IMG/VR virus record: IMGVR_UViG_3300037440_000199
Coordinates: 1-49,248 of that record
DNA length: 49,248 nucleotides
DNA from: a virus
Taxonomy: Duplodnaviria > Caudoviricetes
Direction: 5' to 3' (one strand)
A program made the position numbers and the translations under genes. The notes beneath the pieces were generated by a model that worked only from the letters and a program-made list of their open reading frames with translations, ran no database searches and was not told the origin of the DNA. Of this stretch, positions 2,429 through 32,648 are shown one piece after another (positions within the stretch are counted from its first letter, which is position 1; each line of letters opens with the position of its first letter).

Positions 2429-4075
2429 CTACCACCCTGCTAAGCCGGCAACGCGCTTCTCGCTACGCGCCCGTTTCTCGGAACTCCGTAAAATCCACTC
2501 GATCGACCCGATCGGCGGCCCCGGCGTCTCGTGTCGTTCTGCGGGTGCCGCAACTTCCTTCATCAGCCCCAAGCCGATATAGGCGAGCCAGTCCACAAAG
2601 TCATCGTGGGCGCCTGTGGGGAAGCGCAGCATCTCCCCACGCGCCTGCTGCCACCACGGGGCGAACCGCGGGAACCGCACCTTCCCCATCCGCATCCGAC
2701 CCTGGATCGCCCGAGCGCGGAGCGCCTTGTCCTTGGACGGCGTGATGTGATCGATCGCCGTGTAGACCCGTTCCTCGCGCATCCGTTTGAGCAAGAACGG
2801 CCCAAACGATTTTGAGATGTTCTCCGATTCCATCCACCAGAGCATCGGCTTGTGGTTCTTGAACTGAATCAGCAGTTCGTCCACCGCCCTATCAGTCGCG
2901 AATCGGTCCCACACCACAGTCGGCAGCACCCATATGTCGTCGTTCTCGTCGATGCCGACACAGCCGAGCACCGTGAAGTCGCGCTCCGCCTTGGTGCTGA
3001 CCGCGTGATCCGACGCGCCATAGATGCGTAGGTTCTTGGGCAGTTCGTCCCGGTCGTACTCGACCAGGTCGGACGCCCGAAAATAATCGCCATCCTCGGG
3101 AGACGGTTTCCCCATGTAGAGGGATGAGAAGCCGCGCTTGTCGAGCCGCTTCTGCCGCGCAAGCCGCTCCAGTGAGTGACGTTGTTCCCACAGCGCCGAG
3201 ATCGGCTTATCGCCGAACTGCTCGCGCACCAGGTCGCTTTTCGGCTTCTCCAGCGTCAAACCGAGCGCCTTCGCAAGATCCGGGTCGGAGATCACCGCTG
3301 GAACGTTTAAGTAAAGCCAATCACCCGCGATGCCGGCGTATTCCTTGTCGCGATCAGGGTGCTCGGGGTCACACAGCCGGCCGATCAGGTCGTCGCCACT
3401 CCACCGCGTATGGACAACTACCACCGCGGAATCATTATGCGTACGGGTGGACGCGGTGCGGGCGAACCAGTGCCAGAGCCGCTGCCGATAAGTATCGGAT
3501 TGCGCTTCTTCATCGGACTTAATCGGGTCATCAACCACGAAGATGTCGGCCGGCTTACCCATCGCCGCGCCGCCGCCGACACCCGCGAACACCGATTTAC
3601 CACCAACCGTCGTGATGAGCAGATCCTTGGCTTTGCCGCCGTCGCGCAATTCGCATTCCGGGAACACTTGGCGAAACATATGTGAGTTTACAATCGCCCG
3701 CACGTCGTCGCCGAAACCGTTGGCGCTATCCTGATTGTAGCTAGCGATAATCATATTGATCCGCGGATTACGGCCAACCTGCCACGCCGGGAACACTCGG
3801 CTAATGAGCTGGCTCTTGCCTGTCTGCGGGGCGATCGACAGCGCGAAGTTACGAGCGCCCGACTTGGCCAGTATCTCGCGACGATCGATCTTGTGCAGAA
3901 TCTCGCACAACAGCCGAGCTTGCGGGGTGACCTGGTACAACGACTTATCAGGGTTATCCATGTCGTTTGGGTCCGGCATGGCAAGCTGCGCAAACTTCAG
4001 CAGGTCGTCGTGCGCCTCCCGCACAGCGATGAGGCGTTTCGTTGCCCTGAGAAGTTCCTGCTTGTCGGCGCTCAA
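2429..4075 (-). CDS. terL: terminase large subunit
   Basis: Walker A APQTGKS, Walker B VVDDP, VHTRW coupling motif, nuclease ASDHA...HDDFVD; start placed at TTG 4075 (GGAGG RBS, overlaps upstream TGA) rather than 4240. Confidence 0.92.
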   Translation of the reverse strand: MSADKQELLRATKRLIAVREAHDDLLKFAQLAMPDPNDMDNPDKSLYQVTPQARLLCEILHKIDRREILAKSGARNFALSIAPQTGKSQLISRVFPAWQVGRNPRINMIIASYNQDSANGFGDDVRAIVNSHMFRQVFPECELRDGGKAKDLLITTVGGKSVFAGVGGGAAMGKPADIFVVDDPIKSDEEAQSDTYRQRLWHWFARTASTRTHNDSAVVVVHTRWSGDDLIGRLCDPEHPDRDKEYAGIAGDWLYLNVPAVISDPDLAKALGLTLEKPKSDLVREQFGDKPISALWEQRHSLERLARQKRLDKRGFSSLYMGKPSPEDGDYFRASDLVEYDRDELPKNLRIYGASDHAVSTKAERDFTVLGCVGIDENDDIWVLPTVVWDRFATDRAVDELLIQFKNHKPMLWWMESENISKSFGPFLLKRMREERVYTAIDHITPSKDKALRARAIQGRMRMGKVRFPRFAPWWQQARGEMLRFPTGAHDDFVDWLAYIGLGLMKEVAAPAERHETPGPPIGSIEWILRSSEKRARSEKRVAGLAGW

Positions 4076-6083: not shown

Positions 6084-9000
6084 TTACGCCTGGAACCCGC
6101 CCGAGCACGCCGCGAAGTCGTTGACGCTTGCGGGGGCCTTCAGGTTTGTTATGCTGCCCGAACCAAGAAAATGCTCCGGCTGAACCGACGCGGAGCCGCT
6201 GGACTGTATCCGCGTCCCAACAAAGTTACCGACGATCGTCCCGGAAACCGACGAGTTCAGACCGTCGATACACACGTCGGCCGGCGATGCGCTGCGATTA
6301 AGGAACTCATTCCCCGTAACCGCGACCTTCTTGGGCGAAGCACCAACGAAGTTAATCATCTGACCCCCGTTCGCGGTCAGCTGACAGCCGTTGATGATCG
6401 CCCGGACCTCACTCCCATCCCCCGATTGGTTCGTTAGATCGAAACAGACTGCGCCAGACCCCGCCGTGTTCCCGGCGTCCAAGACGCAGCCGGTGAATAT
6501 GGCGTGAACGCTGTGGTTGGTCTCCGCCGAGATCGACGACCCGATCCGCATCCGAACACTTGCACTTTCGCCCCGGTCAAAGACAACGTTCGTGAACTGC
6601 CGATTTCCGAGGTGCTGCTGGCTGCCGTCCATATCCAGCGCGTAGGCGCAGTTGGCGTTGGTGAGGTTGATTTCACCATTCATCACCTTCCATGCATCGC
6701 CGCCGAGCCCGGCGCCCGGGTGCATCCAGATGCCGCGCGTGTCGTACTGCTCCGCGTCCCCATCTGACGCCGTGATGAAGAAATTGCTGAGTTTGATGTT
6801 GTTGGAGCCCTGATCGTCGATGCCCGCTCCGTCGCCCGGGCCGTGAATGTCGATTTTTAGCCCGTTAATAGACGACTGCGTGCAAGTCGTACTGTCGGAG
6901 GTACTGCCCAATTGGAGGCCAACATGAACCCCCTCTAGGCGCACATCGTCGATTTCCCAACGTGATCCATTGACAGCCTTGATCGCGACGCCTGACGGTG
7001 TTCCCGACAGCGAATCGAAGTTCAGTTCCAGGTTCTCCAGACGCCAACGGGACGACGCGGTGCCGCTGGTCCCCATCGTGAACAGATTGGCGTTCGTGGT
7101 GCCGGTCTTCTCAATGACGCAGTCCTCGGACGACGCGCCCCGGATCGTCCAAAAATTTCCTGTGATAGTGTCGAGCGCCCCACCAGACACAATCGAATTA
7201 CCAATCGGAACCAGGAACGACCTGTAGAGGTTCGAGTTGATCATGGAGACGACGGTCTGCCACGCGGTGCGATCGTCCGTGCTGCCGTCAAGCACCATCC
7301 CGATCATCCGGGTGTTGATGATTTCCTCAGCCGGTTCCCACCAGTCGCCACCGGCATCCTGGAACTTGGCGTCGTGGGTAGGCTCGGACGTGCTGACGTT
7401 GCGCCACAGCCCGTGACCGCCGTCGCCGAGCGAGGCGTAGCCGTGAACGTAAAGCTGGCCGTATGCCGAAACGTCGGCCGCCGCGGCGTCCGTGGTGTCG
7501 GCGAACTGCGGAATGCCGCCGAGGTTCGCGAGCGTTCCGGGCGCGTCACCGGCCGTCAGCGCGCCTTGGATTTCGAGGTTGCCGGATTCGTCGATTTCGA
7601 GGCGATTGACCAGCGGCGTACCGCCATCCCGGGTGAACAACGCCACACGGCCGGCATTCGCACCTGTCTTCTCGGCAACCAAGGCCGCGGCAAACACGTC
7701 GGTATCGCCGGCGGTAAGGGTAGCCGCAGCCCTCGTGCCGGTATCGGGATTGGAAAGAGCAAGCTGCCGCGCCGCGTTGACTTGAGCATTGGTGAGCGAC
7801 GACCCGACCGGAGCAGAAACCGCAGCGGTGTCGGACCGAGTAATGCTCTGGACGGTCGTGAACGCATTAACCTGACCGAGCAGCGCCGTCACGGTGCCGT
7901 CGACGGTAAACTCCTGGCCCGTCAGCGTGAGGCCAGTGCCGGCGCTATACGAGTTAGCGGCCTGGGTCTGGACGAACGTGATGTCGTCCGTATCGACGAC
8001 TGGCGCGGTCGTATTCGAGCACTTCCACTTCGTCGCTTCGTTAGCGGTGCCCTCGAGCACCAGAACTTGCCGGCCGACGAACTCACCCGTTTCATCGTTG
8101 TCAGTCGCGCGAGTCGGGGCGCCGGTCGCCTCGACCGTGTAGACGCCGTTCTCGGATTCGTCGGCCTGATCTTTGATGAGAACGCGATCACCGGTGGCGA
8201 GCACCACACCATCAACCGTATCGCCATCCTCGAAGTCTGACGCCAACGTTCCGGCCGTCGTCGTCGCGGCAACCACCGGGTCGAGATCGACAAAGCCGGT
8301 AGCGATTTGGGTGTCGACGTACGTCTTGACGGCGTGCTCGGTGACCGCGTCGGTTTCGCTGTCGTCGCCGAGCGTCACGTCGTTGCTGAGCCCGGCCACT
8401 GCCGCGGCGCCGAGCTCCAACGCGGTGCGGGCGCCGGCGGCGTCATCCGCTCCGGTGCCACCGTTCGCCAACGCAAGGATGGACGACCCGACTGCCGCGG
8501 CCTCGGACAGGTCGATCGAACCGAACGCGAGCGCATCGCCGGCGCCGCTGATCCGGAGGATCTGGTCGGCCGTACCAACGATATTGCCGCGGTTCGCCGT
8601 GCTGTTGCCGGTGACGCCCACCACCGAGCGGGCGGAACCTTGCGCCAGCTTGGCGTTCGACACTGCGTTATCGGCGATCGTCACCACCCCTTCGGAGTCG
8701 ACCGTGATATCGCCCGACAGGGACAGGGGGTCCGTGGCCAAGTCCACCAGGAGTTCCCAGAAGCCAGTGTTCAGGTCTTCCGAGAAATCCGCCGTTGACG
8801 TGTGCGACTCGATGGCGCGATAGAGCGACGTGAAATTGATAACCACGTCGCCGGGGACATAGGCGGTTTCCGCCGCCCAGACGGTCGCGGGGTTGATACC
8901 GACCAGTACTTCGGCTTTGAGCTGGTCGAACCCGACGGTCTGATTGGCAAGCGCGGTGTCGTCGCGCTGGATGAGCGCAAGATTCGCCAGAATCGCGTTG

Positions 9001-9271: not shown

Positions 9272-9436
9272 CTACCGCGGGTCCAACCAAGGACCGTGCA
9301 TGTCGTTGCGCGCCACCGCCAAACCCGCGCGGATCAACTCCGCCGCCGGAACGATGTTTTCCGCGTGAATGTTTGCGATACCGTGCCGCTGCGCTTCACG
9401 CAGCAAATCCGCGGCTTCTTCGCTCAAATCACTCAC
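9272..9436 (-). CDS. small hypothetical protein (54 aa, not in ORF track)
   Basis: GTG overlapping the SLT stop; MSDLSEEAADLLREAQRHG...WLDPR. Confidence 0.5.
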   Translation of the reverse strand: MSDLSEEAADLLREAQRHGIANIHAENIVPAAELIRAGLAVARNDMHGPWLDPR

Positions 9437-10125
9437 GCCAGCACCAAATTCGGCGACGCGTTCGCGAAAATCGACACCATGTCGTTGCGTTTCGGCTTTT
9501 TTCCGCCCTCGGGGGGCTTTTCGGCCGCTTGTGGCTGTTGCGCGGACATCAGTTGCGCCAGCATGGCGCCGAGCCCGTTTTGGGTAGGATCCACCCCAGT
9601 TTGGGTAGGAGGAGACGCTTGTATTCCCGCCGGCGGGACGGCGCCTCCTCCGGATGCCGGGGAGCTACCGCCGGCAAACTTCTTCGTCCACAAATTAGCG
9701 AAATCGCCGGCCGTCATGCCGGGTTGGCCGGCGTTGAGGGCGATCGCCTTGTCGCCGACGACCGACGCGGCTGGTGCGCTGGCGTTCCGGAGCAGATTTA
9801 TCGCTCCACCCGCCCCTTGCTGGTGCATGAGATACATCTCTCCAGGAGAAGGATCGCGGCCGAGCGCCGTTCGGAAGTGGTTCCGGTTGTCAACAGTGAA
9901 ACGAGCCATCGCATCGGTGTTGGCAATTGCGTCGGACTTTGGGGCGCCTCTGCCATACTGGTTCCACGTAGGGTCGATGAACTGAAACAGCCCGCCGGCG
10001 CTCGAACTAGGGTTCTTGGCGGCCGGGTTCATGCCTGATTCGATCTGCGCCGACCGCATCAGATAATCGGCGGGGAGCCCGTACTGCGCGGCGGCCTGTT
10101 GGATGATGTCGGCGACTGTCGGCAT
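9433..10125 (-). CDS. lytic transglycosylase (SLT-like), probably virion-associated
   Basis: IESGMNPAAKNPSSSAGGLFQF catalytic motif; YLMHQQGAGGA. Confidence 0.85.
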   Translation of the reverse strand: MPTVADIIQQAAAQYGLPADYLMRSAQIESGMNPAAKNPSSSAGGLFQFIDPTWNQYGRGAPKSDAIANTDAMARFTVDNRNHFRTALGRDPSPGEMYLMHQQGAGGAINLLRNASAPAASVVGDKAIALNAGQPGMTAGDFANLWTKKFAGGSSPASGGGAVPPAGIQASPPTQTGVDPTQNGLGAMLAQLMSAQQPQAAEKPPEGGKKPKRNDMVSIFANASPNLVLA

Positions 10126-10326
10126 ACGGTGTTATACGCCAATTGCGGATTGCGTACAACTGTCTGGCGGTAGAGGCTGCACAGGCGGCCAGAACGTGTT
10201 CCCGTAAGTACCCACGACCACGATCCCGTCGTTGGTCGAAGCGTGCTGCGGGAGATTGCTCGTCAGGAAGCGGATAAGCCGGGTACTGGCGATAAAGAGT
10301 CTAGGGTGCCCCACGGTTTATCTCTG

Positions 10327-10476
10327 AAAAAGAACGGCCCCGACGCCCAAGGTGCTACGCATTACAAACAGGAGGGTGGCGTCGGGGCCGTAAGTCAGGC
10401 TGTTGAGACAGAACCGGCAGCCCACGAAGCCACCGGGTAGAGAGGATCGGGTGAACTCTACCAAAAGCCCCGACCC
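10327..10476 (-). ncRNA. putative structured ncRNA, unit 3
   Basis: follows TTGACA-18-TACATT; ends in a perfect 14-bp stem (10334-10347/10378-10391) plus UCUUUUU. Confidence 0.6.
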
Positions 10477-10482
10477 CGTGGG

Positions 10483-10512
10483 AATGTAGGATACTGAGGC
10501 GGGTGTTGTCAA
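10483..10512 (-). promoter_or_regulatory. sigma70-like promoter, unit 3
   Basis: TTGACA-18-TACATT; -35 centred in the palindrome GGGTGTTG-T-CAACACCC (10501-10517). Confidence 0.7.
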
Positions 10513-10565
10513 CACCCTTACACGAGCGGAGCGGATTGAAACTGATTCGCTGTGCTCAGTGAAAG

Positions 10566-10730
10566 AAAAGACCGGGGCGGCAAGTGAACCGCTGAGCGAC
10601 AGTACCGCCCCGGCCTCCCGGGTGGGCGTGCCGATTTATCAGTTCGGTGCCGCCCGGACTTACTGAGGGCGGATGCCCGCTTTCACCCTGTTAAGCGATC
10701 CAGTCGCGCAGAGCCGATCCCGCAGTTTGC
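10566..10730 (-). ncRNA. putative structured ncRNA, unit 2
   Basis: follows TTGACA-18-TACAAA; two hairpins with complementary loops; ends in CCGGGGCGG...CCGCCCCGG-UCUUUU. Confidence 0.65.
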
Positions 10731-10766
10731 GTCGGATTTGTAGGCAGATGTCGAGGGGGTTGTCAA
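10731..10766 (-). promoter_or_regulatory. sigma70-like promoter, unit 2
   Basis: TTGACA-18-TACAAA-tccgac; near-identical to the unit 1 promoter. Confidence 0.7.
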
Positions 10767-10791
10767 CACCCTTATACACCCGGAACGGATT

Positions 10792-10896
10792 AAAAAGACC
10801 GGGGCGGCAAGTGAACCGCTGAGCGACAGTACCGCCCCGGCCAACGGTCATCCCGGAGTGCCGGGAGCCGCATATATGCGTCGATGCGCGACGCGC
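10792..10896 (-). ncRNA. putative structured ncRNA, unit 1
   Basis: hairpins GCGUCG/CGACGC and UCCCGG/CCGGGA, then the shared 50-nt terminal hairpin and U-tract. Confidence 0.6.
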
Positions 10897-10932
10897 GTCG
10901 GATTTGTAGGCAGATGTCGGGGGGATTGTCAA
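10897..10932 (-). promoter_or_regulatory. sigma70-like promoter, unit 1
   Basis: TTGACA-18-TACAAA-tccgac; -35 overlaps the MTase stop codon. Confidence 0.7.
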
Positions 10933-11903
10933 GCGCAGGCCGCTATGAACTCCGCGGCGACTTGCGGGACGATCGCGTTGCCGTAGGCGCGCAGGCATCC
11001 CACTCGGCCGGGAATCCCATGAGCCAGCGGGAATGTGCCGGATTCAACTGGCCGGGCTTTTCCGTCGGTGCAGAGGAGCCAGTCGGCGTCTGACCAGAAA
11101 CTAGCGCCACCGTCTTGCGGCCCGAGTCCGTATTCCCCGCCTCGTTGTAGCCTTTCTGCGCGGGCGTACCGGCCATTGGCGTCGGCCAGCTCGCTAACGA
11201 CGCCGCTCCCGGCAACCTGTCCGTTCCCTGCGCTGGTCCACCTTTCGGGCCGTCCTGCGTGCACGGCGTCGACCACGCTGCCAACTGTGCGCTCTGCCCG
11301 AGCGTCAGCCCGAAACCGTTGTTCCCGTGCTTCGCCGCGGCTTTCGCCCGACGCTCCATCCACGTCGTGTCGGTCAGGTTGCCCGCCGATGCGTCCGGCG
11401 TCGGCCACGAACCACAATCGCTGTCTGATGTGCGGCGCGCCGACGCTACAAGCTGGCAATACGGCCGCCCCGCAGGCGTAGCCTTCTGCCTCCAGGCCAG
11501 CGAAAACAGCGTCGAGCCAGCCTTGCTTAATCGCGCCGCTAACCTGCTCGCCAAAGACCTTTGCAGGCTTGCGCTCGCGGATGAGACTGAACCAGTCGGG
11601 CCACAAATGGCGATCGTCCGCGAAGCCTTTTCGCTGACCAGCGGCGCTGAAGGGCTGGCAGGGGCAGCTCCCGGTCCAGACGGGTCGGTCGTCGGGCCAT
11701 CCAGCCAGGCGTAGCGCGTAGCTCCACCCGCCGATTCCGGCGAAGAAGTGATGCTGCGTGTAGGCGGTGAGGTCGTCAGGCTGAACGTCCTTGACGCTGC
11801 GGGTGTCTACGTCGCCAGGGGCGATGAGGTTTTCGGCGATCAGGTTTTTCAGCCATTGGGCCGCGTAGGGGTCGATCTCGTTGTAGTACGCCCGGGGCTG
11901 CAT
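10929..11903 (-). CDS. DNA cytosine-5 methyltransferase (alpha-type subunit)
   Basis: FFAGIGG (motif I), [12 protein letters not shown] (IV), GEQV (VI), [11 protein letters not shown] (VIII), [10 protein letters not shown] (X). Confidence 0.9.
10943..11554 (-). CDS. nested alternative-frame ORF, probable MTase beta-type subunit
   Basis: W(P/S)TP repeats and [16 protein letters not shown] (motif IX-like), entirely within the MTase gene. Confidence 0.65.
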
Positions 11904-11959
11904 GTCGGATTTGTAGACGAACGTATGCAGACACGCAATAGGACCGTTATCCTACTTGA

Positions 11960-12098: not shown

Positions 12099-12587
12099 TT
12101 AGTCTAGCCAAGACAAAGGCTTAGCCTCGTCGTCTTGGGCGTTTTGAGCGTTAACCGGGGTTGCGCGGCCGGCGAGCTCTGATTCAAGCTTGGCCACGAG
12201 CTCGTGCAGCTCGTGCGTCGTGCGTTCGGTAAGCGGCTTCTCGATAGCGCTCTCCGCGCCTTCAGCCTTTGGCGGTACCCATCCGGCGAGGCCTATCAGA
12301 TCCCTGGCGCAGTTGCGCCGAACGGCCGGCGGCACCTTTTCATCACGGGCCAGCGACAACAGCACGCTGTACGCGACGGGCGCCGCTTCAACGACCAAGC
12401 GCCGCGTTATCTCCACCCGCACGGCCGCGGCGACGTGCGGGAGCCGAATCGCGGCCGAAACCGATTCTTTATGGGAGTAGCCCGCGCGTTCGCCGGCGAG
12501 TCCCTGCGGCACTCCGTTCACTAACTCGTGAACTAACGCCCTCTGCTGATCGGTGAGGCTCGCCAAGTGTGGCGCCGGCAGACCCAC
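12099..12587 (-). CDS. terS: terminase small subunit-like protein
   Basis: N-terminal HTH LTDQQRALV...AGERAGYS...IRLPHVAAAV typical of TerS. Confidence 0.65.
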   Translation of the reverse strand: MGLPAPHLASLTDQQRALVHELVNGVPQGLAGERAGYSHKESVSAAIRLPHVAAAVRVEITRRLVVEAAPVAYSVLLSLARDEKVPPAVRRNCARDLIGLAGWVPPKAEGAESAIEKPLTERTTHELHELVAKLESELAGRATPVNAQNAQDDEAKPLSWLD

Positions 12588-12616: not shown

Positions 12617-12648
12617 TTGTAGACATGCAGCACGACGTATGCCTACAA
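12617..12648. promoter_or_regulatory. symmetric bidirectional promoter between terS and the early genes
   Basis: TTGTAGACAT...ATGCCTACAA inverted repeat; reads TAGACA-18-TACAAT (+) and TAGGCA-18-TACAAA (-). Confidence 0.6.
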
Positions 12649-12686
12649 TGCCGACACTAGCAGAGACAGACAGAAGGGACAAGACG

Positions 12687-12923
12687 ATGACACACGTGAT
12701 TCTCTGCGACGGCCAAATCTTCCGTATGGAGCGTTGGGGCAACGGCTTGTCATACGAGCTGACCCACAAGCCCTCCGGAATGGCAGCGTACATGCGGGGT
12801 GAATGCGCCGCGCGATTCGACGACGATCTGCGCGCATGTGAAGACAATTTCCCCGACAACACGACCGAGCAAAACGCCGCGTGGCTTTGGGATCAATGCG
12901 AATATAGCTCGATCGCGGTCTAG
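12687..12923 (+). CDS. early hypothetical protein
   Basis: 78 aa from the ATG after the shared GAAGGGACAAGACG leader. Confidence 0.7.
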   Translation: MTHVILCDGQIFRMERWGNGLSYELTHKPSGMAAYMRGECAARFDDDLRACEDNFPDNTTEQNAAWLWDQCEYSSIAV

Positions 12924-12983
12924 CCACGCGCCTTCCTCGCTGAATACTGAGACGAATCACCGCAGACATGAAGGGACAAGACG

Positions 12984-13280
12984 ATGTCATTGGTTCAAGA
13001 CGCCCGCAACGCCCATGCCCTGCACGGCTTCAAAGCTTGGCAACTTTACCAGACCTACAAAACTTGGTGGAGCGGCCCAGTCCCGCGCGGTCCTGGGATG
13101 GACACAATCACCAGATTAGCCCTCCGACTCTACTACGGCCGGACACCAGCGGAGGCTTTGGCCCGCGAGTACCTCTACCGTTGGGGCTTGGCCATCAAGC
13201 CAGCCGATCAGTGCATTGGCGCCGCCACCCGCAACCCTTGCGTTTCCATATTCGGCGCACCGCACACAATCGGAATGTGA
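12984..13280 (+). CDS. early hypothetical protein
   Basis: 98 aa, starts at the end of repeat B. Confidence 0.7.
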   Translation: MSLVQDARNAHALHGFKAWQLYQTYKTWWSGPVPRGPGMDTITRLALRLYYGRTPAEALAREYLYRWGLAIKPADQCIGAATRNPCVSIFGAPHTIGM

Positions 13281-13327
13281 AGCCGCGCGCCTTCCTTGTG
13301 GAAAACTGAGACAGATAGGAGCAGACA

Positions 13328-13597
13328 GTGGTCAAATTCAACCCGTTCGGCAGGGTCAATTGCCAATACGGCGCTCCCATGGGCCGCCACGGAAACGACG
13401 CGTCGACATGGGACGCCACCAGCAAACTATACGCCCGCCACGGTGGCGGCGATGGTTACTATGACCGCGGCGGCGCCTATTGGGGCCACAGCGACATATA
13501 CGCCGTGTGGGCACGTGGCGGCGGATGGTGCTGCTATGTTGATGGCGTTTCATCCCCCGAATCGGCAATCCGCAAAGTGCAACGAACCAACGCCTAA
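13328..13597 (+). CDS. early hypothetical protein (YGAPMGR...YYDRGGAYWG)
   Basis: 89 aa, GTG at the end of repeat A with AGGAG RBS. Confidence 0.72.
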   Translation: MVKFNPFGRVNCQYGAPMGRHGNDASTWDATSKLYARHGGGDGYYDRGGAYWGHSDIYAVWARGGGWCCYVDGVSSPESAIRKVQRTNA

Positions 13598-13661
13598 AGC
13601 CGCGCGCACCTTCCTTGTTGAATATTGAGACAAATCACCGCAGACACGAAGGGACAAGACG

Positions 13662-13850
13662 ATGCATCTCACCGACATGACCTACGACCAAGCGAATCAC
13701 ATGCTGCGCACCGGCCGCGCGTCAGAAACCGCCGCCCGTGAGTATGTCGCCACATGGAACGCCCACAAGGTCTCTACACAAGCCACCCTGATCGAGGTCA
13801 GGGACAACGGCTTCCGTCACGTCGAAATTATCGTTGTAGACGCGCCCTGA
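13662..13850 (+). CDS. early hypothetical protein
   Basis: 62 aa, starts at the end of repeat B. Confidence 0.68.
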   Translation: MHLTDMTYDQANHMLRTGRASETAAREYVATWNAHKVSTQATLIEVRDNGFRHVEIIVVDAP

Positions 13851-13900
13851 CCTAGCCGCGCGCCTTCCTTGTGGAAAACTGAGACAGATAGGAGCAGACA

Positions 13901-14113
13901 GTGGCTAAACAATCTGACAAGCTTCGCGACATGGAAACGCCGATGGTGCTCGGTTACGAACTCGACCGCAAAACACTCCTGCCCCTTCGCCGCACGATCG
14001 ACACAAGCCGCCCCAGAGATTACGGCGCCGACCCAATCGGCAATGGCAAATTCCGCATGGTCCCCAGCGGCGACATTGTGGATTTCGCCGAACGCAACCG
14101 CAGACTCGCCTAA
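13901..14113 (+). CDS. early hypothetical protein
   Basis: 70 aa, GTG at the end of repeat A. Confidence 0.68.
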   Translation: MAKQSDKLRDMETPMVLGYELDRKTLLPLRRTIDTSRPRDYGADPIGNGKFRMVPSGDIVDFAERNRRLA

Positions 14114-14115
14114 CC

Positions 14116-14187
14116 GGCGAAACGGCGCTCCAGTCAAGAGAGCGCCGTCCGGCCGGGATGGCTTCCGGCCGCTGATGAGCCAAGCCA
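14116..14187 (+). ncRNA. type II hammerhead ribozyme
   Basis: GGC-GAAA-stem III (CGGCGCTC/GAGCGCCG)-TC^-stem I (CGGCCGGGA/TTCCGGCCG)-CTGATGA-GCC; predicted cleavage after C14149; loop TGGCT can pair with 3' AGCCA. Confidence 0.9.
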
Positions 14188-14221
14188 AAACGTTGAAAAC
14201 TGAGACAGAATGGAGACTGAA

Positions 14222-14536
14222 ATGGCTACGCGCGAATTTGAACACTATGACGGCTGCAGCCGCAACGACCCTGACAACTGCGGCGCCTGCGCACTGACTG
14301 ACACTCGGCAGAACCGCCCGAACTATTCATCTTGGCCGCTTGTCTACATGTCCAACCGCCGCGCCATCCCGGCTACGTGGAAAGCCGCTTTCTTCGAGGA
14401 GCTGGCGCGCACCGATAACCTCCTTTACCGGGACAACTTGGTCGCGCACGTCGTCAAGTATGGCGCGCGGTTTTCCGACGGTACGACGGCGGTCGAGCGG
14501 AACGGCTTGGTCATGCATGGGCCGGAAAAATGCTAA
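14222..14536 (+). CDS. early hypothetical protein, Cys/His-rich N-terminus
   Basis: HYDGC...NCGAC; GGAG RBS; directly downstream of the hammerhead. Confidence 0.68.
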   Translation: MATREFEHYDGCSRNDPDNCGACALTDTRQNRPNYSSWPLVYMSNRRAIPATWKAAFFEELARTDNLLYRDNLVAHVVKYGARFSDGTTAVERNGLVMHGPEKC

Positions 14537-14616
14537 CCCTCCTCTCCGCCCTCTTACGCCTCCTGCTGATGGCCGCCGTCATGGCCACATGGGTTGCGTA
14601 TGCCGCCAACGCGTGA
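14530..14616 (+). CDS. 28-aa hydrophobic peptide
   Basis: MLTLLSALLRLLLMAAVMATWVAYAANA; fills the gap between two ORFs. Confidence 0.4.
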   Translation: MLTLLSALLRLLLMAAVMATWVAYAANA

Positions 14617-14639
14617 AACTGAGACAGATGGAGACAGAC

Positions 14640-14999
14640 ATGGACGGCTTCCGATTCTATGCCGACTTACCCGGCACGACCACACGACCCGACACCTACG
14701 GCATATCACCCGGCCCGTACCACGAAAAGCCGGTGCTGCCGAAAAGCAGCACGGTCGCGCGCATACGCGCCTTCGCGGACAGCGGGGAACACCTGAACGT
14801 TGCGGCGGTCCTGTTAGGTCGCGAGCACACAAACGACGACTACACACAGGAAGCGATAGTAGCGACATTCAGCCATGCCGACTCCGGTACCTCGCTCGGT
14901 TCCGTGTCGCGCGAGTATCTGCGGAAGTGCCGGCGCATCCCTGAGTCACTAGCTCGCCGGCTGCACCCGCAGATGTTCGCCCGTCTTGACGCAAACTGA
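14640..14999 (+). CDS. early hypothetical protein
   Basis: 119 aa from MDGFRFYADL; GGAG RBS after the TGAGAC motif. Confidence 0.7.
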   Translation: MDGFRFYADLPGTTTRPDTYGISPGPYHEKPVLPKSSTVARIRAFADSGEHLNVAAVLLGREHTNDDYTQEAIVATFSHADSGTSLGSVSREYLRKCRRIPESLARRLHPQMFARLDAN

Positions 15000-15008
15000 G
15001 ACACCACA

Positions 15009-15212
15009 ATGACCACAATCGCAATCGCAATCAACGGCACCGTCCGCTTGCGTGGCCACTACGACCCCACGACCCAAGCCGCTCAATTGGCCGCCGAGCT
15101 CGATCGAGCCTTGCCGACCCTCCGCCAACAAGGGAGGGTCGCCATCTGGGCCGAAGCCGCCGACGGCATCGCCCATCTGGTCCACCCTTGCGCCTTCAAT
15201 GTCGGAAAGTGA
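15009..15212 (+). CDS. early hypothetical protein
   Basis: 67 aa between two motif copies. Confidence 0.6.
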   Translation: MTTIAIAINGTVRLRGHYDPTTQAAQLAAELDRALPTLRQQGRVAIWAEAADGIAHLVHPCAFNVGK

Positions 15213-15221
15213 GGCAAAGCC

Positions 15222-15356
15222 ATGTCTACAATCCTGCTGATAGCCGTGGTGGCGCTCCTGATATTCGGGACTCACCACCACCGGGCGCAAAGCCGCTTCG
15301 CTCAAAGCCGCTACGCCGGTAACATGCCAGCGCCGAAATTCATCCGCAGACTGTGA
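15222..15356 (+). CDS. 44-aa membrane peptide
   Basis: MSTILLIAVVALLIFGTHHHRAQ...; GAGG RBS. Confidence 0.5.
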   Translation: MSTILLIAVVALLIFGTHHHRAQSRFAQSRYAGNMPAPKFIRRL

Positions 15357-15373
15357 AACGGAGGAACACCCCG

Positions 15374-15586
15374 ATGGCACTCTACGAAACACGCCGCGAC
15401 GCGATCACAGCCGTGGCACTGAAGCATTGGGCGCAATGGATACGGAATGACCCACACTTCGACCGGGAGCCGCGCGAACAAACACTTAAATCGGTTCAAG
15501 ATGCGATCGCCAATACTTACATCGACGACATCAGCGACGCCGACTGGCTCACTGCAGCACTCGGGCGCTTGATGGCGACCCGCTGA
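15374..15586 (+). CDS. early hypothetical protein
   Basis: 70 aa; GGAGG RBS. Confidence 0.62.
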   Translation: MALYETRRDAITAVALKHWAQWIRNDPHFDREPREQTLKSVQDAIANTYIDDISDADWLTAALGRLMATR

Positions 15587-25678: not shown

Positions 25679-26466
25679 GGACAGAAGATGAACTGGTAAA
25701 ACGGCTACACGCAATAGCCAACATGGACCTACGCACAGGCCCGTTCCTGGCCCACACGTTCGACACTGCGGCAGAGGCCGCCGACAAAATTCCCCGGCTA
25801 TCTGCTGAGATCAAGCGCCTCACCGCAGCCCTTGAGAGGACACGCCAGCAGTCGGAAAAATTCGAGGGACTCTACGAAGAATATCTCGCTCGATGTGAGC
25901 AAGCCGAAGAATATGCCGCCAGCGAGGCAAAGACCGGAGAGGACGTATACGAGCATCTTGGTGATGTTCTGTATTTCCTGTGCGATCTACATCCCGATGA
26001 TCGCTGCGAAGCACTGGACAAGGCGCTAGCTTTCTACAACGCCGCGAGGCCGGACAAGAAGATAGAGCCGTCCGGTTTTCCATTCCGGCATCTAACCACG
26101 TTAGGCGATTATCTTGAAAGTCTTGTCGCCCCCGCGCATCCGTCCAGGGATGCGGAGCAAGAGCCTCCCGGCTGCCCTACGCCCGGCGCGTGTTCCTGCC
26201 CGGCGCTGAAAGAAGCGCGCCGGTTGGTCGAACAAGCCGACGCCGTGACCCATACTGACGCGGCCGGCAATCAACATCGCAAAGTCTTTGCAAGGGACCT
26301 AGATGCCTTGGCAGCCGCCATCAAGCACTCCACCCCGCCCGCAAGGGATTATGTGCTGGAGGAAGCGGCGAAGGCAATCGAGCGTGTCGATAATACACTG
26401 TTGCACCAGGACAAGCTCGCAGCGCACATCCGCGCCCTCAAGAAGTCCCAACCGGGAGAGGGCTGA
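25669..26466 (+). CDS. mosaic hypothetical protein
   Basis: 265 aa; AGGAGG RBS; ends KSQPGEG*. Confidence 0.65.
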   Translation: MAMRTEDELVKRLHAIANMDLRTGPFLAHTFDTAAEAADKIPRLSAEIKRLTAALERTRQQSEKFEGLYEEYLARCEQAEEYAASEAKTGEDVYEHLGDVLYFLCDLHPDDRCEALDKALAFYNAARPDKKIEPSGFPFRHLTTLGDYLESLVAPAHPSRDAEQEPPGCPTPGACSCPALKEARRLVEQADAVTHTDAAGNQHRKVFARDLDALAAAIKHSTPPARDYVLEEAAKAIERVDNTLLHQDKLAAHIRALKKSQPGEG

Positions 26467-26471
26467 CCGAA

Positions 26472-26656: not shown

Positions 26657-26845
26657 ATGAAGTACCCACACGAATTCCTCGGACGATGTGAGACGTGCTT
26701 GGGCAACGCCTACTTGTCGAGCGCGCCTTGCAGAATTGGCTATGGGCAAGGGATGCCACTTTTCGATAGCCAGTGTGTGGTGCGCAGGGCACAAAAACAA
26801 TACGAGCAAAAGCGAAAAGCGAAGTCCCAACCGGGAGAGGGCTGA
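26657..26845 (+). CDS. 62-aa Cys-rich protein
   Basis: CETC..C..C; ends KSQPGEG*. Confidence 0.55.
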   Translation: MKYPHEFLGRCETCLGNAYLSSAPCRIGYGQGMPLFDSQCVVRRAQKQYEQKRKAKSQPGEG

Positions 26846-26851
26846 CCGCCG

Positions 26852-31672: not shown

Positions 31673-31824
31673 AACAGTTGCTCTACTTGTTCAATCGTGA
31701 ACCTTGCCTGGCCGCCCGCGGTTCTGAATGCCGGGGCCAGCAGGCCCTCCTTGAGATACCGCTGCACGGTGCGGGGGGTGACCCTGAGCTGTGCAGCGAC
31801 TTGCTCAGTTCTTAGGCCGGGCAC
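31474..31824 (-). CDS. xis: excisionase (MerR-like HTH)
   Basis: TEQVAAQLRVTPRTVQRYLKEGLL..FRTAGGQARF; C-terminal tail overlaps int out of frame. Confidence 0.75.
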   Translation of the reverse strand: MPGLRTEQVAAQLRVTPRTVQRYLKEGLLAPAFRTAGGQARFTIEQVEQLLCRGSSGKSPGSIRSRASTTSSGTTRIRDARSASRWMQETLMWHRIVSRSGSHTGGRSKRTGSGSR

Positions 31825-32345
31825 TTTCCACCAATTGTTGTATCCGAACCCCTATGTCGGTCGGAAGCGTCATGTTCACCCGCACCCACGAATACCCGTT
31901 ACCCGCACTCGTGACGAGCAGCGGGGGTGCGTTGGCGCCCGTGGCGCTCGGCAGTATGGTGTGGCCTAGGTCTTCCGAACTGATCCCCAAGGCCATGCAA
32001 ATGGCTTTCCGGTTATTTGGCCCCGGTAGGTTGCGGCCGCGCAAGTATCCCGAGATAACGTCACGGCCCATTCTGCCGGATGGCATGTGCATTCCCGCTT
32101 GGCGGGCCAGTTCACTCTGGTTCCAGCCTTTACGGAGCATGTGCGCCTGCAGGTGGGACGCGAAGTCCTGCCGGATTGCCTCCGCGGGCGCCCACGGAGG
32201 CGGTGCCACGAGCCCCGGCGGAGGATTCTGGTAAGCGGGGGTGCGCGGTGTTCCGACGTTGCGTGGGTGCTGTTGCGGCTTCACCGGGGCCTTAGCTTTT
32301 GCCTTCTTCCGCGTAGGTTTTCTGGTGCGCTTCTTGGCCATCATG
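31805..32345 (-). CDS. XRE-family transcriptional regulator (repressor candidate); start uncertain
   Basis: KGWNQSELARQAG...RDVISGYLRGRNLP...ICMALG; GGGAG precedes MMAKKR. Confidence 0.8.
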
Positions 32346-32648
32346 TACTCCCGTTGCATTTGCAGGAAGCAGCGGCTTTTGTAGAAGTCGTGCTTGCCTA
32401 CACGGGTCACATATCACGCACCCGTGAGACTGCCTAGAGTACAAAGCGGCAACAATAGGTTAATTATTTGTTGACAACTTGCAGCCACGTAGGCTGTCGG
32501 TCTTTTCGGACGGTACTCGGCGGGTACTTGGGCGCCACCACAGGCTCGACATCGCACCCGGCGCAGCAGTGTTGGGGGGCGCTCGGATCGTAGTGAGGGC
32601 CGAGGTCGCCCGATCGATAGGGGCACTCGGGGCAGGTGCGGACTTTCA

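Follow-up and report, generated by a model that had tools for sequence, protein, structure and literature searches.

A tandem array of three promoter–terminator units in a phage genome, with predicted small RNAs that may pair with the phage's own early gene leaders

The c4 RNA of phages P1 and P7 carries loops that pair at two places on an mRNA of the same phage, one at the ribosome-binding site and one farther upstream (PMC5320573, PMC12197685). According to the portions of these sources that deal with c4, its loop sequence determines specificity, the RNA is processed by RNase P to about 77 nt and the target is the antirepressor operon (PMC5320573, PMC12197685). In the section devoted to it, sar of phage P22 is described as a short phage RNA that blocks translation initiation of ant, its single target (PMC12197685). 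The cuckoo/RSs0680 (CcsR) sRNAs of Alphaproteobacteria, as outlined in part of PMC4615179, consist of 2–4 adjacent hairpins, each with the loop motif CCUCCUCCC, bind Hfq and are expressed from a stress-sigma promoter. In the literature covered, with subscription journals mostly outside it, no paper on an array like the one described here was found; the 10,006 candidate viral RNAs of PMC10690425 could include its motifs.

The DNA analysed (the window, 49,248 bp, GC 63%) is the whole of virus record IMGVR_UViG_3300037440_000199. It encodes a terminase, a capsid, a T7-like polymerase and ssDNA-binding proteins as well as an integrase and an HTH repressor-like protein (31805–32410). The closest cultured phage shows a terminase identity below 40%, and relatives of the window phage were found in alpha- and betaproteobacterial genomes. 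On the minus strand, the array is flanked upstream by a C5 cytosine methyltransferase gene (10929–11903) and downstream by an SLT transglycosylase gene (9433–10125). Both genes seem leaderless, with start codons 5–6 nt past a −10-like hexamer (11903–11916 and 10125–10160, minus strand). A probable terminase small subunit gene (12099–12587, minus strand), whose homologues carry PF03592 and a JGI name, anchors the site across relatives, and beyond it lies a divergent early operon of ten small genes, e1 to e10 (12687–15586, plus strand). Searched against protein families, the ten early proteins gave one PHROG (function unknown), one sub-threshold Pfam match and no antirepressor family. A tRNA/tmRNA search returned none.

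Between the flanking genes, TTGACA occurs on the minus strand at 10932, 10766 and 10512, followed after an 18-nt spacer by TACAAA, TACAAA and TACATT, respectively, which bears out the three promoters of this form proposed in an earlier note on this DNA. They look sigma-70-like. Promoter 1 (10896–10932) has its −35 element at 10927–10932, overlapping the methyltransferase stop codon, its −10 element at 10903–10908 and a predicted +1 at 10896. The corresponding positions are 10761–10766, 10737–10742 and 10730 for promoter 2 (10730–10766) and 10507–10512, 10483–10488 and 10476 for promoter 3 (10476–10512). The promoter of the methyltransferase gene has 13 nt in common with promoters 1 and 2. A generic promoter scanner, which accepts a −10 hexamer only if its sixth base is T, for that reason reports promoter 3 alone. 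When the window and 183 related loci were scanned for a promoter plus terminator, using a pattern derived from the array's own promoters, six matches were obtained, of which the three in the window all fall at the array.

The predicted RNAs measure 108 nt (unit 1, 10789–10896), 168 nt (unit 2, 10563–10730) and 150 nt (unit 3, 10327–10476), all on the minus strand and close to the structured bodies of ∼105, ∼165 and ∼150 nt that had been proposed. Each unit terminates in a GC-rich stem of 13–14 bp with a 20–30 nt loop and a U-rich tail. Unit 1 is made up of two 5' hairpins and a 50-nt module (10793–10842), and unit 2 of a 115-nt 5' body and a second copy of the module (10566–10615); the module forms the terminator-like stem, with its loop at 10811–10829 in the first copy and 10584–10602 in the second. 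Unit 3 comprises hairpin 1, hairpin 2, a linker and a terminator hairpin. As the earlier note had it, promoters 1 and 2 are nearly identical (95% over 38 nt) and the two modules fully so (100%); there is further similarity between the spacers ahead of promoters 2 and 3 (75% over 57 nt). These repeats suggest that the array grew through tandem duplications in which the 5' part was exchanged. In line with the earlier note, which saw no credible gene in these ∼600 bp, none of the five ORFs that overlap or adjoin the array has a PHROG match better than E 0.1 or belongs to a family.

Units 1 and 3 fold better than their shuffled counterparts, with z-scores of −3.56 (0 of 200 shuffles as good) and −3.79 (1 of 200). 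Taken alone, the 115-nt 5' body of unit 2 has an unexceptional fold (z −0.93; 32 of 200 shuffles as good). It can be drawn as two hairpins whose loops are able to kiss by 5 bp, an arrangement that receives no support from the MFE structure or from model R1, the model of an RNA domain of two relatives (see below). Within the first loop of unit 3 (10436–10462, minus strand), 7 nt are complementary to 7 nt just behind the stem, which in the centroid structure may form an alternative fold or a pseudoknot. In X1, the one sequencing run in which this DNA was found and possibly its source, the assembly is interrupted at the 50-nt repeat, with comparable depth for the three resulting pieces (10.5, 8.2 and 11.7); among the contigs listed, no alternative joint occurs at the array. 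The runs listed for the locus include no RNA run. One X1 contig joins the early-leader repeats at 12927–13336 and skips 294 nt, possibly as a repeat unitig or through leader recombination.

The early genes have a repeated leader that contains a 17-bp, partly dyad box. A box matrix, for which the training set was 12 sites outside the array, ranks promoter 3 (box at 10485–10501), promoter 1 (10896–10912) and promoter 2 (10730–10746) at 16, 17 and 18, respectively, of 98,462 positions, and shuffled genomes (n=3) contain no site that reaches the box score of the array promoters. In promoters 1 and 2 the box spans −10 to +1, as it does in the early promoter (12620–12656); this promoter, which together with the e1 leader occupies 12620–12689 (plus strand; e1 start at 12687), shares both architecture and box with promoters 1 and 2. 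A weak box-like stretch (rank 57) is present at the start of unit 2. From the DNA sequence, we infer that the box may be an operator that co-regulates the array promoters and the early operon. None of the top 45 box sites lies beside the repressor-like gene, and in a dyad spacing test among relatives, 9 nt was not singled out.

The box is phage-wide, with ∼22 sites in promoters and gene leaders (e.g. at 76, 9187, 11903, 12656, 12938–15200, 19014, 19973, 22889, 24390, 35985 and 43003), and is also present in the close relatives L021, L034, L036, L192 and L199. Stoperators of mycobacteriophage L5 (PMC9283540, in the part that treats them) invite a comparison with the box only. Like these, the box is present ∼20 times, within promoters or small gaps between genes, and at gene leaders its orientation relative to transcription is mostly the same; unlike them, it is a partly dyad-symmetric 17-mer that is reversed at several promoters.

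The predicted pairing of the RNAs with the phage's own messages is strongest for unit 3. Opening costs included, its six best partners among 42 curated gene starts are e1, e6, e5, e3, e7 and e4, all belonging to the ten early genes, whose leaders are repeats of about three leader types rather than independent sites. Seed A, in the linker (10404–10413, minus strand), is a 10-nt perfect complement of the e6 leader and matches 9 nt of the e3, e5 and e7 leaders, a match that was spotted by eye before the pairing tests. The complement consists of the box end plus 2–3 nt in the four leaders and overlaps the right half of the box; the predicted targets, each a box with its ribosome-binding site on the plus strand, lie at 13297–13330 (e3), 13870–13903 (e5), 14191–14224 (e6) and 14610–14642 (e7). 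Seed B, in the terminator loop (10364–10376, minus strand), is an anti-Shine-Dalgarno sequence predicted to pair with the e1 leader and its Shine-Dalgarno, the best predicted target of unit 3. The unit 3/e1 duplex reaches −16.8 kcal/mol with opening costs and ranks first in both its row and its column of a 20-phage matrix (see below). Among 24 phages, the phage's own early set ranks first for unit 3 and second for the module. Counting against this, the early leaders of the window are easily paired and attract foreign loops as well.

When only the unpaired bases of the whole RNA were shuffled, pairing as good over the three leader types was obtained in 1 of 90 shuffles for unit 3, 1 of 40 for unit 1 and 0 of 40 for unit 2. 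Shuffling of isolated loops gave borderline results: 8/200 as good for seed B, 12/200 for seed A and 46/200 for the module loop. Perfect matches of at least 9 nt in translation-start regions stood at 5/70 for unit 3 (p=0.11), 0/69 for unit 1 and 0/103 for unit 2. The first hairpin of unit 3 is similar to the anti-leader hairpin of L013 and L016, but its loop has no early-leader match (188/200 shuffles as good). Between the units themselves, the best pairing is −9.5 kcal/mol (units 3 and 2). Starts of the SLT gene and of a large structural gene were considered as targets of the module loop and discarded, as the pairing (about −9 kcal/mol) is no better than noise. In all, unit 3 carries most of the evidence for an antisense reading.

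Units 1 and 2 invariably find their best predicted site on e1–e7 through the module loop (−5 to −11 kcal/mol, bulged); early leaders are not favoured by the unrelated 5' bodies of these units. The 'constant scaffold, variable payload' of the earlier note is therefore probably the wrong way round for these two units: in pairing models, the constant module, rather than the variable 5' body, is likely to be the seed. Since both seed A and the module loop lie opposite the box in these pairings, part of the leader match may be a DNA relic.

The reading that we favour, with slightly more doubt than belief, is that the array RNAs act in trans as an antisense brake on early-gene translation. Host sigma-70 would transcribe the three units separately, with transcription ending at the stems. 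The terminator loop of unit 3 would bind the e1 leader and its linker the e3, e5, e6 and e7 leaders, and the module loop would allow units 1 and 2 to bind those early leaders more weakly; pairing at the leaders or ribosome-binding sites would lower translation. Because the box lies on the −10/+1 region of the array promoters as it does on the early promoter, the RNAs may be switched on together with the early genes and could then act as a delayed brake on the early operon. The 5' bodies of units 1 and 2 might, at a guess, be stability or protein-binding parts. Of the roles first suggested for a modular small-RNA array, antisense regulation has thus become the best-supported reading, whereas no support was found for decoy or anti-defence functions.

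As far as the consulted parts of the literature allow, the array resembles phage antisense RNAs of the P1 c4 and P22 sar type and is not a member of the C4 or cuckoo families. Like c4, phage RNA loops are predicted to pair with mRNA leaders of their own phage, and the two single-stranded pairing regions typical of c4 are predicted in unit 3, where they are borderline against loop shuffles. The array differs from c4 in having three separately promoted units in place of one RNase P-processed 77-nt RNA, in its predicted targets (the repeated leader of several early genes, rather than an antirepressor operon) and in promoters that appear to be co-regulated with the early promoter. As with sar, a short phage RNA is predicted to block translation initiation of a phage gene, but sar has one target, ant, and the array has short, partly bulged seeds and several targets 2–4 kb away. 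Clustered small RNAs, GC-rich variable stems and the anti-Shine-Dalgarno loop of unit 3 recall the cuckoo sRNAs, as does the presence of alphaproteobacterial genomes among those with relatives of the window phage. Membership was rejected, as there is no CCUCCUCCC loop in the three units, only one shorter anti-Shine-Dalgarno stretch in unit 3 and none in units 1 and 2; unlike cuckoo, each unit has its own promoter and terminator and is phage-borne.

Rfam models gave no match to the array at gathering score, only weak unrelated matches below it, in keeping with the earlier impression that the array belongs to no recognised family. The C4 models had no array match at gathering score nor among 10 matches up to E 10. 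A solitary CRISPR-repeat RNA (Racr) would presumably look like a complete CRISPR direct repeat, read on the strand that is transcribed; this assignment was dropped, the only similarity being a 10-nt piece of CRISPR-DR9 on the opposite strand, in a spacer, at 15.9 bits against a cut-off of 45. A self-cleaving ribozyme or riboswitch was likewise set aside: Rfam has no such match at the array, and hammerhead and HDV-like layouts were not seen in it when the consensus was compared by eye.

Searches for relatives of the array by sequence gave little. A blastn search of 50,697 phage records found matches in the methyltransferase gene only and no array homologue, the exact module pattern occurred 0 times in viral contigs, and nhmmer found no homologue of the units in 183 loci and 83 further loci. 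No relative turned up in metagenomes queried with the terminase small subunit, and Rfam gave 0 matches on 11 related loci. The hairpin-1 pattern occurred in 14 loci, namely the record of L016 and 13 that resemble chance terminators. Since no sequence homologue of the units was found, relatives were compared by synteny, using 252 related loci that searches with alignments of terminase and structural proteins had brought together; among the first 184 sequences, the small terminase gene could be placed by a profile in 68. Behind this gene, many relatives, though not all, carry a sigma-70-like promoter, at least one GC-rich hairpin with a pyrimidine-rich loop and a terminator, and many have no RNA-like unit at the site. 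The first stem of unit 3 aligns with hairpin stems of L013 and L016, and the module stem bears a loose resemblance to L008, L102 and L047, with no invariant column.

To compare each phage's site with its own and with foreign early leaders, 29 phages were selected by rule (non-redundant, a site of at least 120 nt, at least three early starts and enough flanking DNA). Own-site matches over the Shine-Dalgarno were longer than foreign ones (p=5e-5, or p=0.002 without the window, L013 and L016; like all own-versus-other statistics here, without a tree correction for relatedness). Controls gave p=0.095 for the other strand and p=0.04 and 0.47 for coding sequence. When matches had to overlap the Shine-Dalgarno core, the window ranked 8 of 29. 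This test took the place of an initial one, discarded since it was inflated by promoter-box matches. In the 20-phage matrix, RNAs scored against their own first early gene gave p=3e-4, and p=1e-3 without the window, for bodies delimited by promoter and terminator after several matches had already been seen; on removal of the window and six relatives noticed by eye, the signal was gone (p=0.35). The window, L016, L013, L008 and L028 came first in their rows. The RNA of L016 has its longest perfect complement within the complete L016 record (13 nt) at the first early gene, on the ribosome-binding site. Against shuffles, the loops of 6 of 14 relatives stood at 4/60 or better and 8 did not, one of the eight misses being L061, for which the pattern chose the wrong loop. 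We conclude that the self-match is real in a subset of phages with different sequences and absent in about half.

A wider proposal, which we consider doubtful, is that the clade maintains, after the gene for the terminase small subunit, a slot in which small RNAs can be swapped, with loops that co-evolve with their own early leaders. In the window, three RNAs would read the transcribed box and Shine-Dalgarno, such that one DNA box would serve both as a protein-bound switch and as the RNA address of a multi-target timer or immunity layer.

Other kinds of conserved or repeated RNA-like motif were seen at this site. L008 (6178–6275) and L102 (4104–4205) have in common a conserved RNA domain of ∼100 nt, with two hairpins and pairing loops, in which 9 of 29 pairs change on both sides, three of them in the loop–loop helix (two sequences only); the domain is not in Rfam and has no third member among 100 loci. 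Unit 2, whose possible loop–loop pairing recalls this domain, was rejected as a member, as R1, the model of this domain, gives 11 window matches up to E 5 and none in the array. Another common non-coding motif lies behind the terminase small subunit gene in L021 (3255–3365), L034 (3715–3830) and L192 (688–785), and positions 600–1020 of L192 seem to form an extended series of hairpin units. In L114 (∼3180–3480), L040 (∼3270–3450) and L032 (∼6830–6930), promoter–hairpin–terminator units occupy the same site on the opposite strand. By eye, the L114 unit has the look of an early leader copied in inverted orientation, start codon included, which hints at a possible origin of such RNAs.

The RNAs might aim at host mRNAs instead, the pyrimidine-rich loops being general, cuckoo-like anti-Shine-Dalgarno seeds and the phage-leader match a side effect. 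We regard this as unlikely. It would account for the 11 nt shared by seed B and a hairpin loop in L022, a distant phage, for the C/U-rich loops without a self-match in many relatives (L047, L020, L034 and L021) and for the L038 RNA, which matches starts all over the L038 genome. However, the own-versus-other tests favour each phage's own leaders, and the module loop has no anti-Shine-Dalgarno motif. The same pairing is expected if the RNAs are made in the lysogen and confer immunity against the phage itself and similar phages, as c4 does in P1 and P7. Both an integrase gene and an HTH repressor-like gene are present in the window, the L016 record is classed as a provirus, and loops vary between phages along with leaders, as heteroimmunity needs. 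We nevertheless judge lysogen immunity quite improbable: the array promoters carry the box of the early promoter, so that silencing of the early promoter would silence both. This objection is softened by the lack of a top-45 box beside the repressor-like gene.

It would be more surprising still if the RNAs were decoys or scaffolds for a protein (box-binding, host RNA-binding or defence), with the leader complement a leftover of the DNA box. Seed B is not part of the box, no similarity to CRISPR repeats rises above chance (a CRISPR-DR9 fragment, E 2.4, opposite strand) and the L008/L102 model misses unit 2. In favour of a decoy, the structured 5' bodies of units 1 and 2 have no target and unit 2 begins with the weak box-like stretch; the L008/L102 domain, with its covarying loop–loop pairing, indicates that protein-binding or tertiary RNAs occur at this site. 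Finally, the near-identical promoters, identical module and related spacers point to recent duplication, and many relatives lack an RNA-like unit here, as would be expected of a by-product of tandem promoter–terminator duplication that only stops methyltransferase read-through or has no function. Such an origin seems very improbable to us as a full account, since termination needs no three strong promoters, the bodies differ and fold well, and promoter–hairpin units are kept at the site in independent lineages.

To our knowledge, the phage antisense RNAs c4, sar and OOP each control one regulator. If the antisense brake on early-gene translation is true, a multi-target RNA acting on the whole early operon would be a simple means of timing early-gene shut-off, and the repeated leaders found in the early regions of many phages would gain a use. 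Natural seed–leader pairs that can be tested with reporters, without phage culture, are provided by the own-versus-other signal in this diverse clade.

Two further features of the window were observed. In the Rfam scan, a Type II hammerhead ribozyme was detected at 14115–14190 on the plus strand (50.1 bits, cut-off 37), within the early operon between the e5 stop codon and the box and leader of e6; a second hammerhead was sought near 18.7 kb, and none was found there. Ahead of the DNA polymerase gene, an identical 28-nt repeat occurs at 26442–26469 and 26821–26848, with ∼380 bp between the copies.
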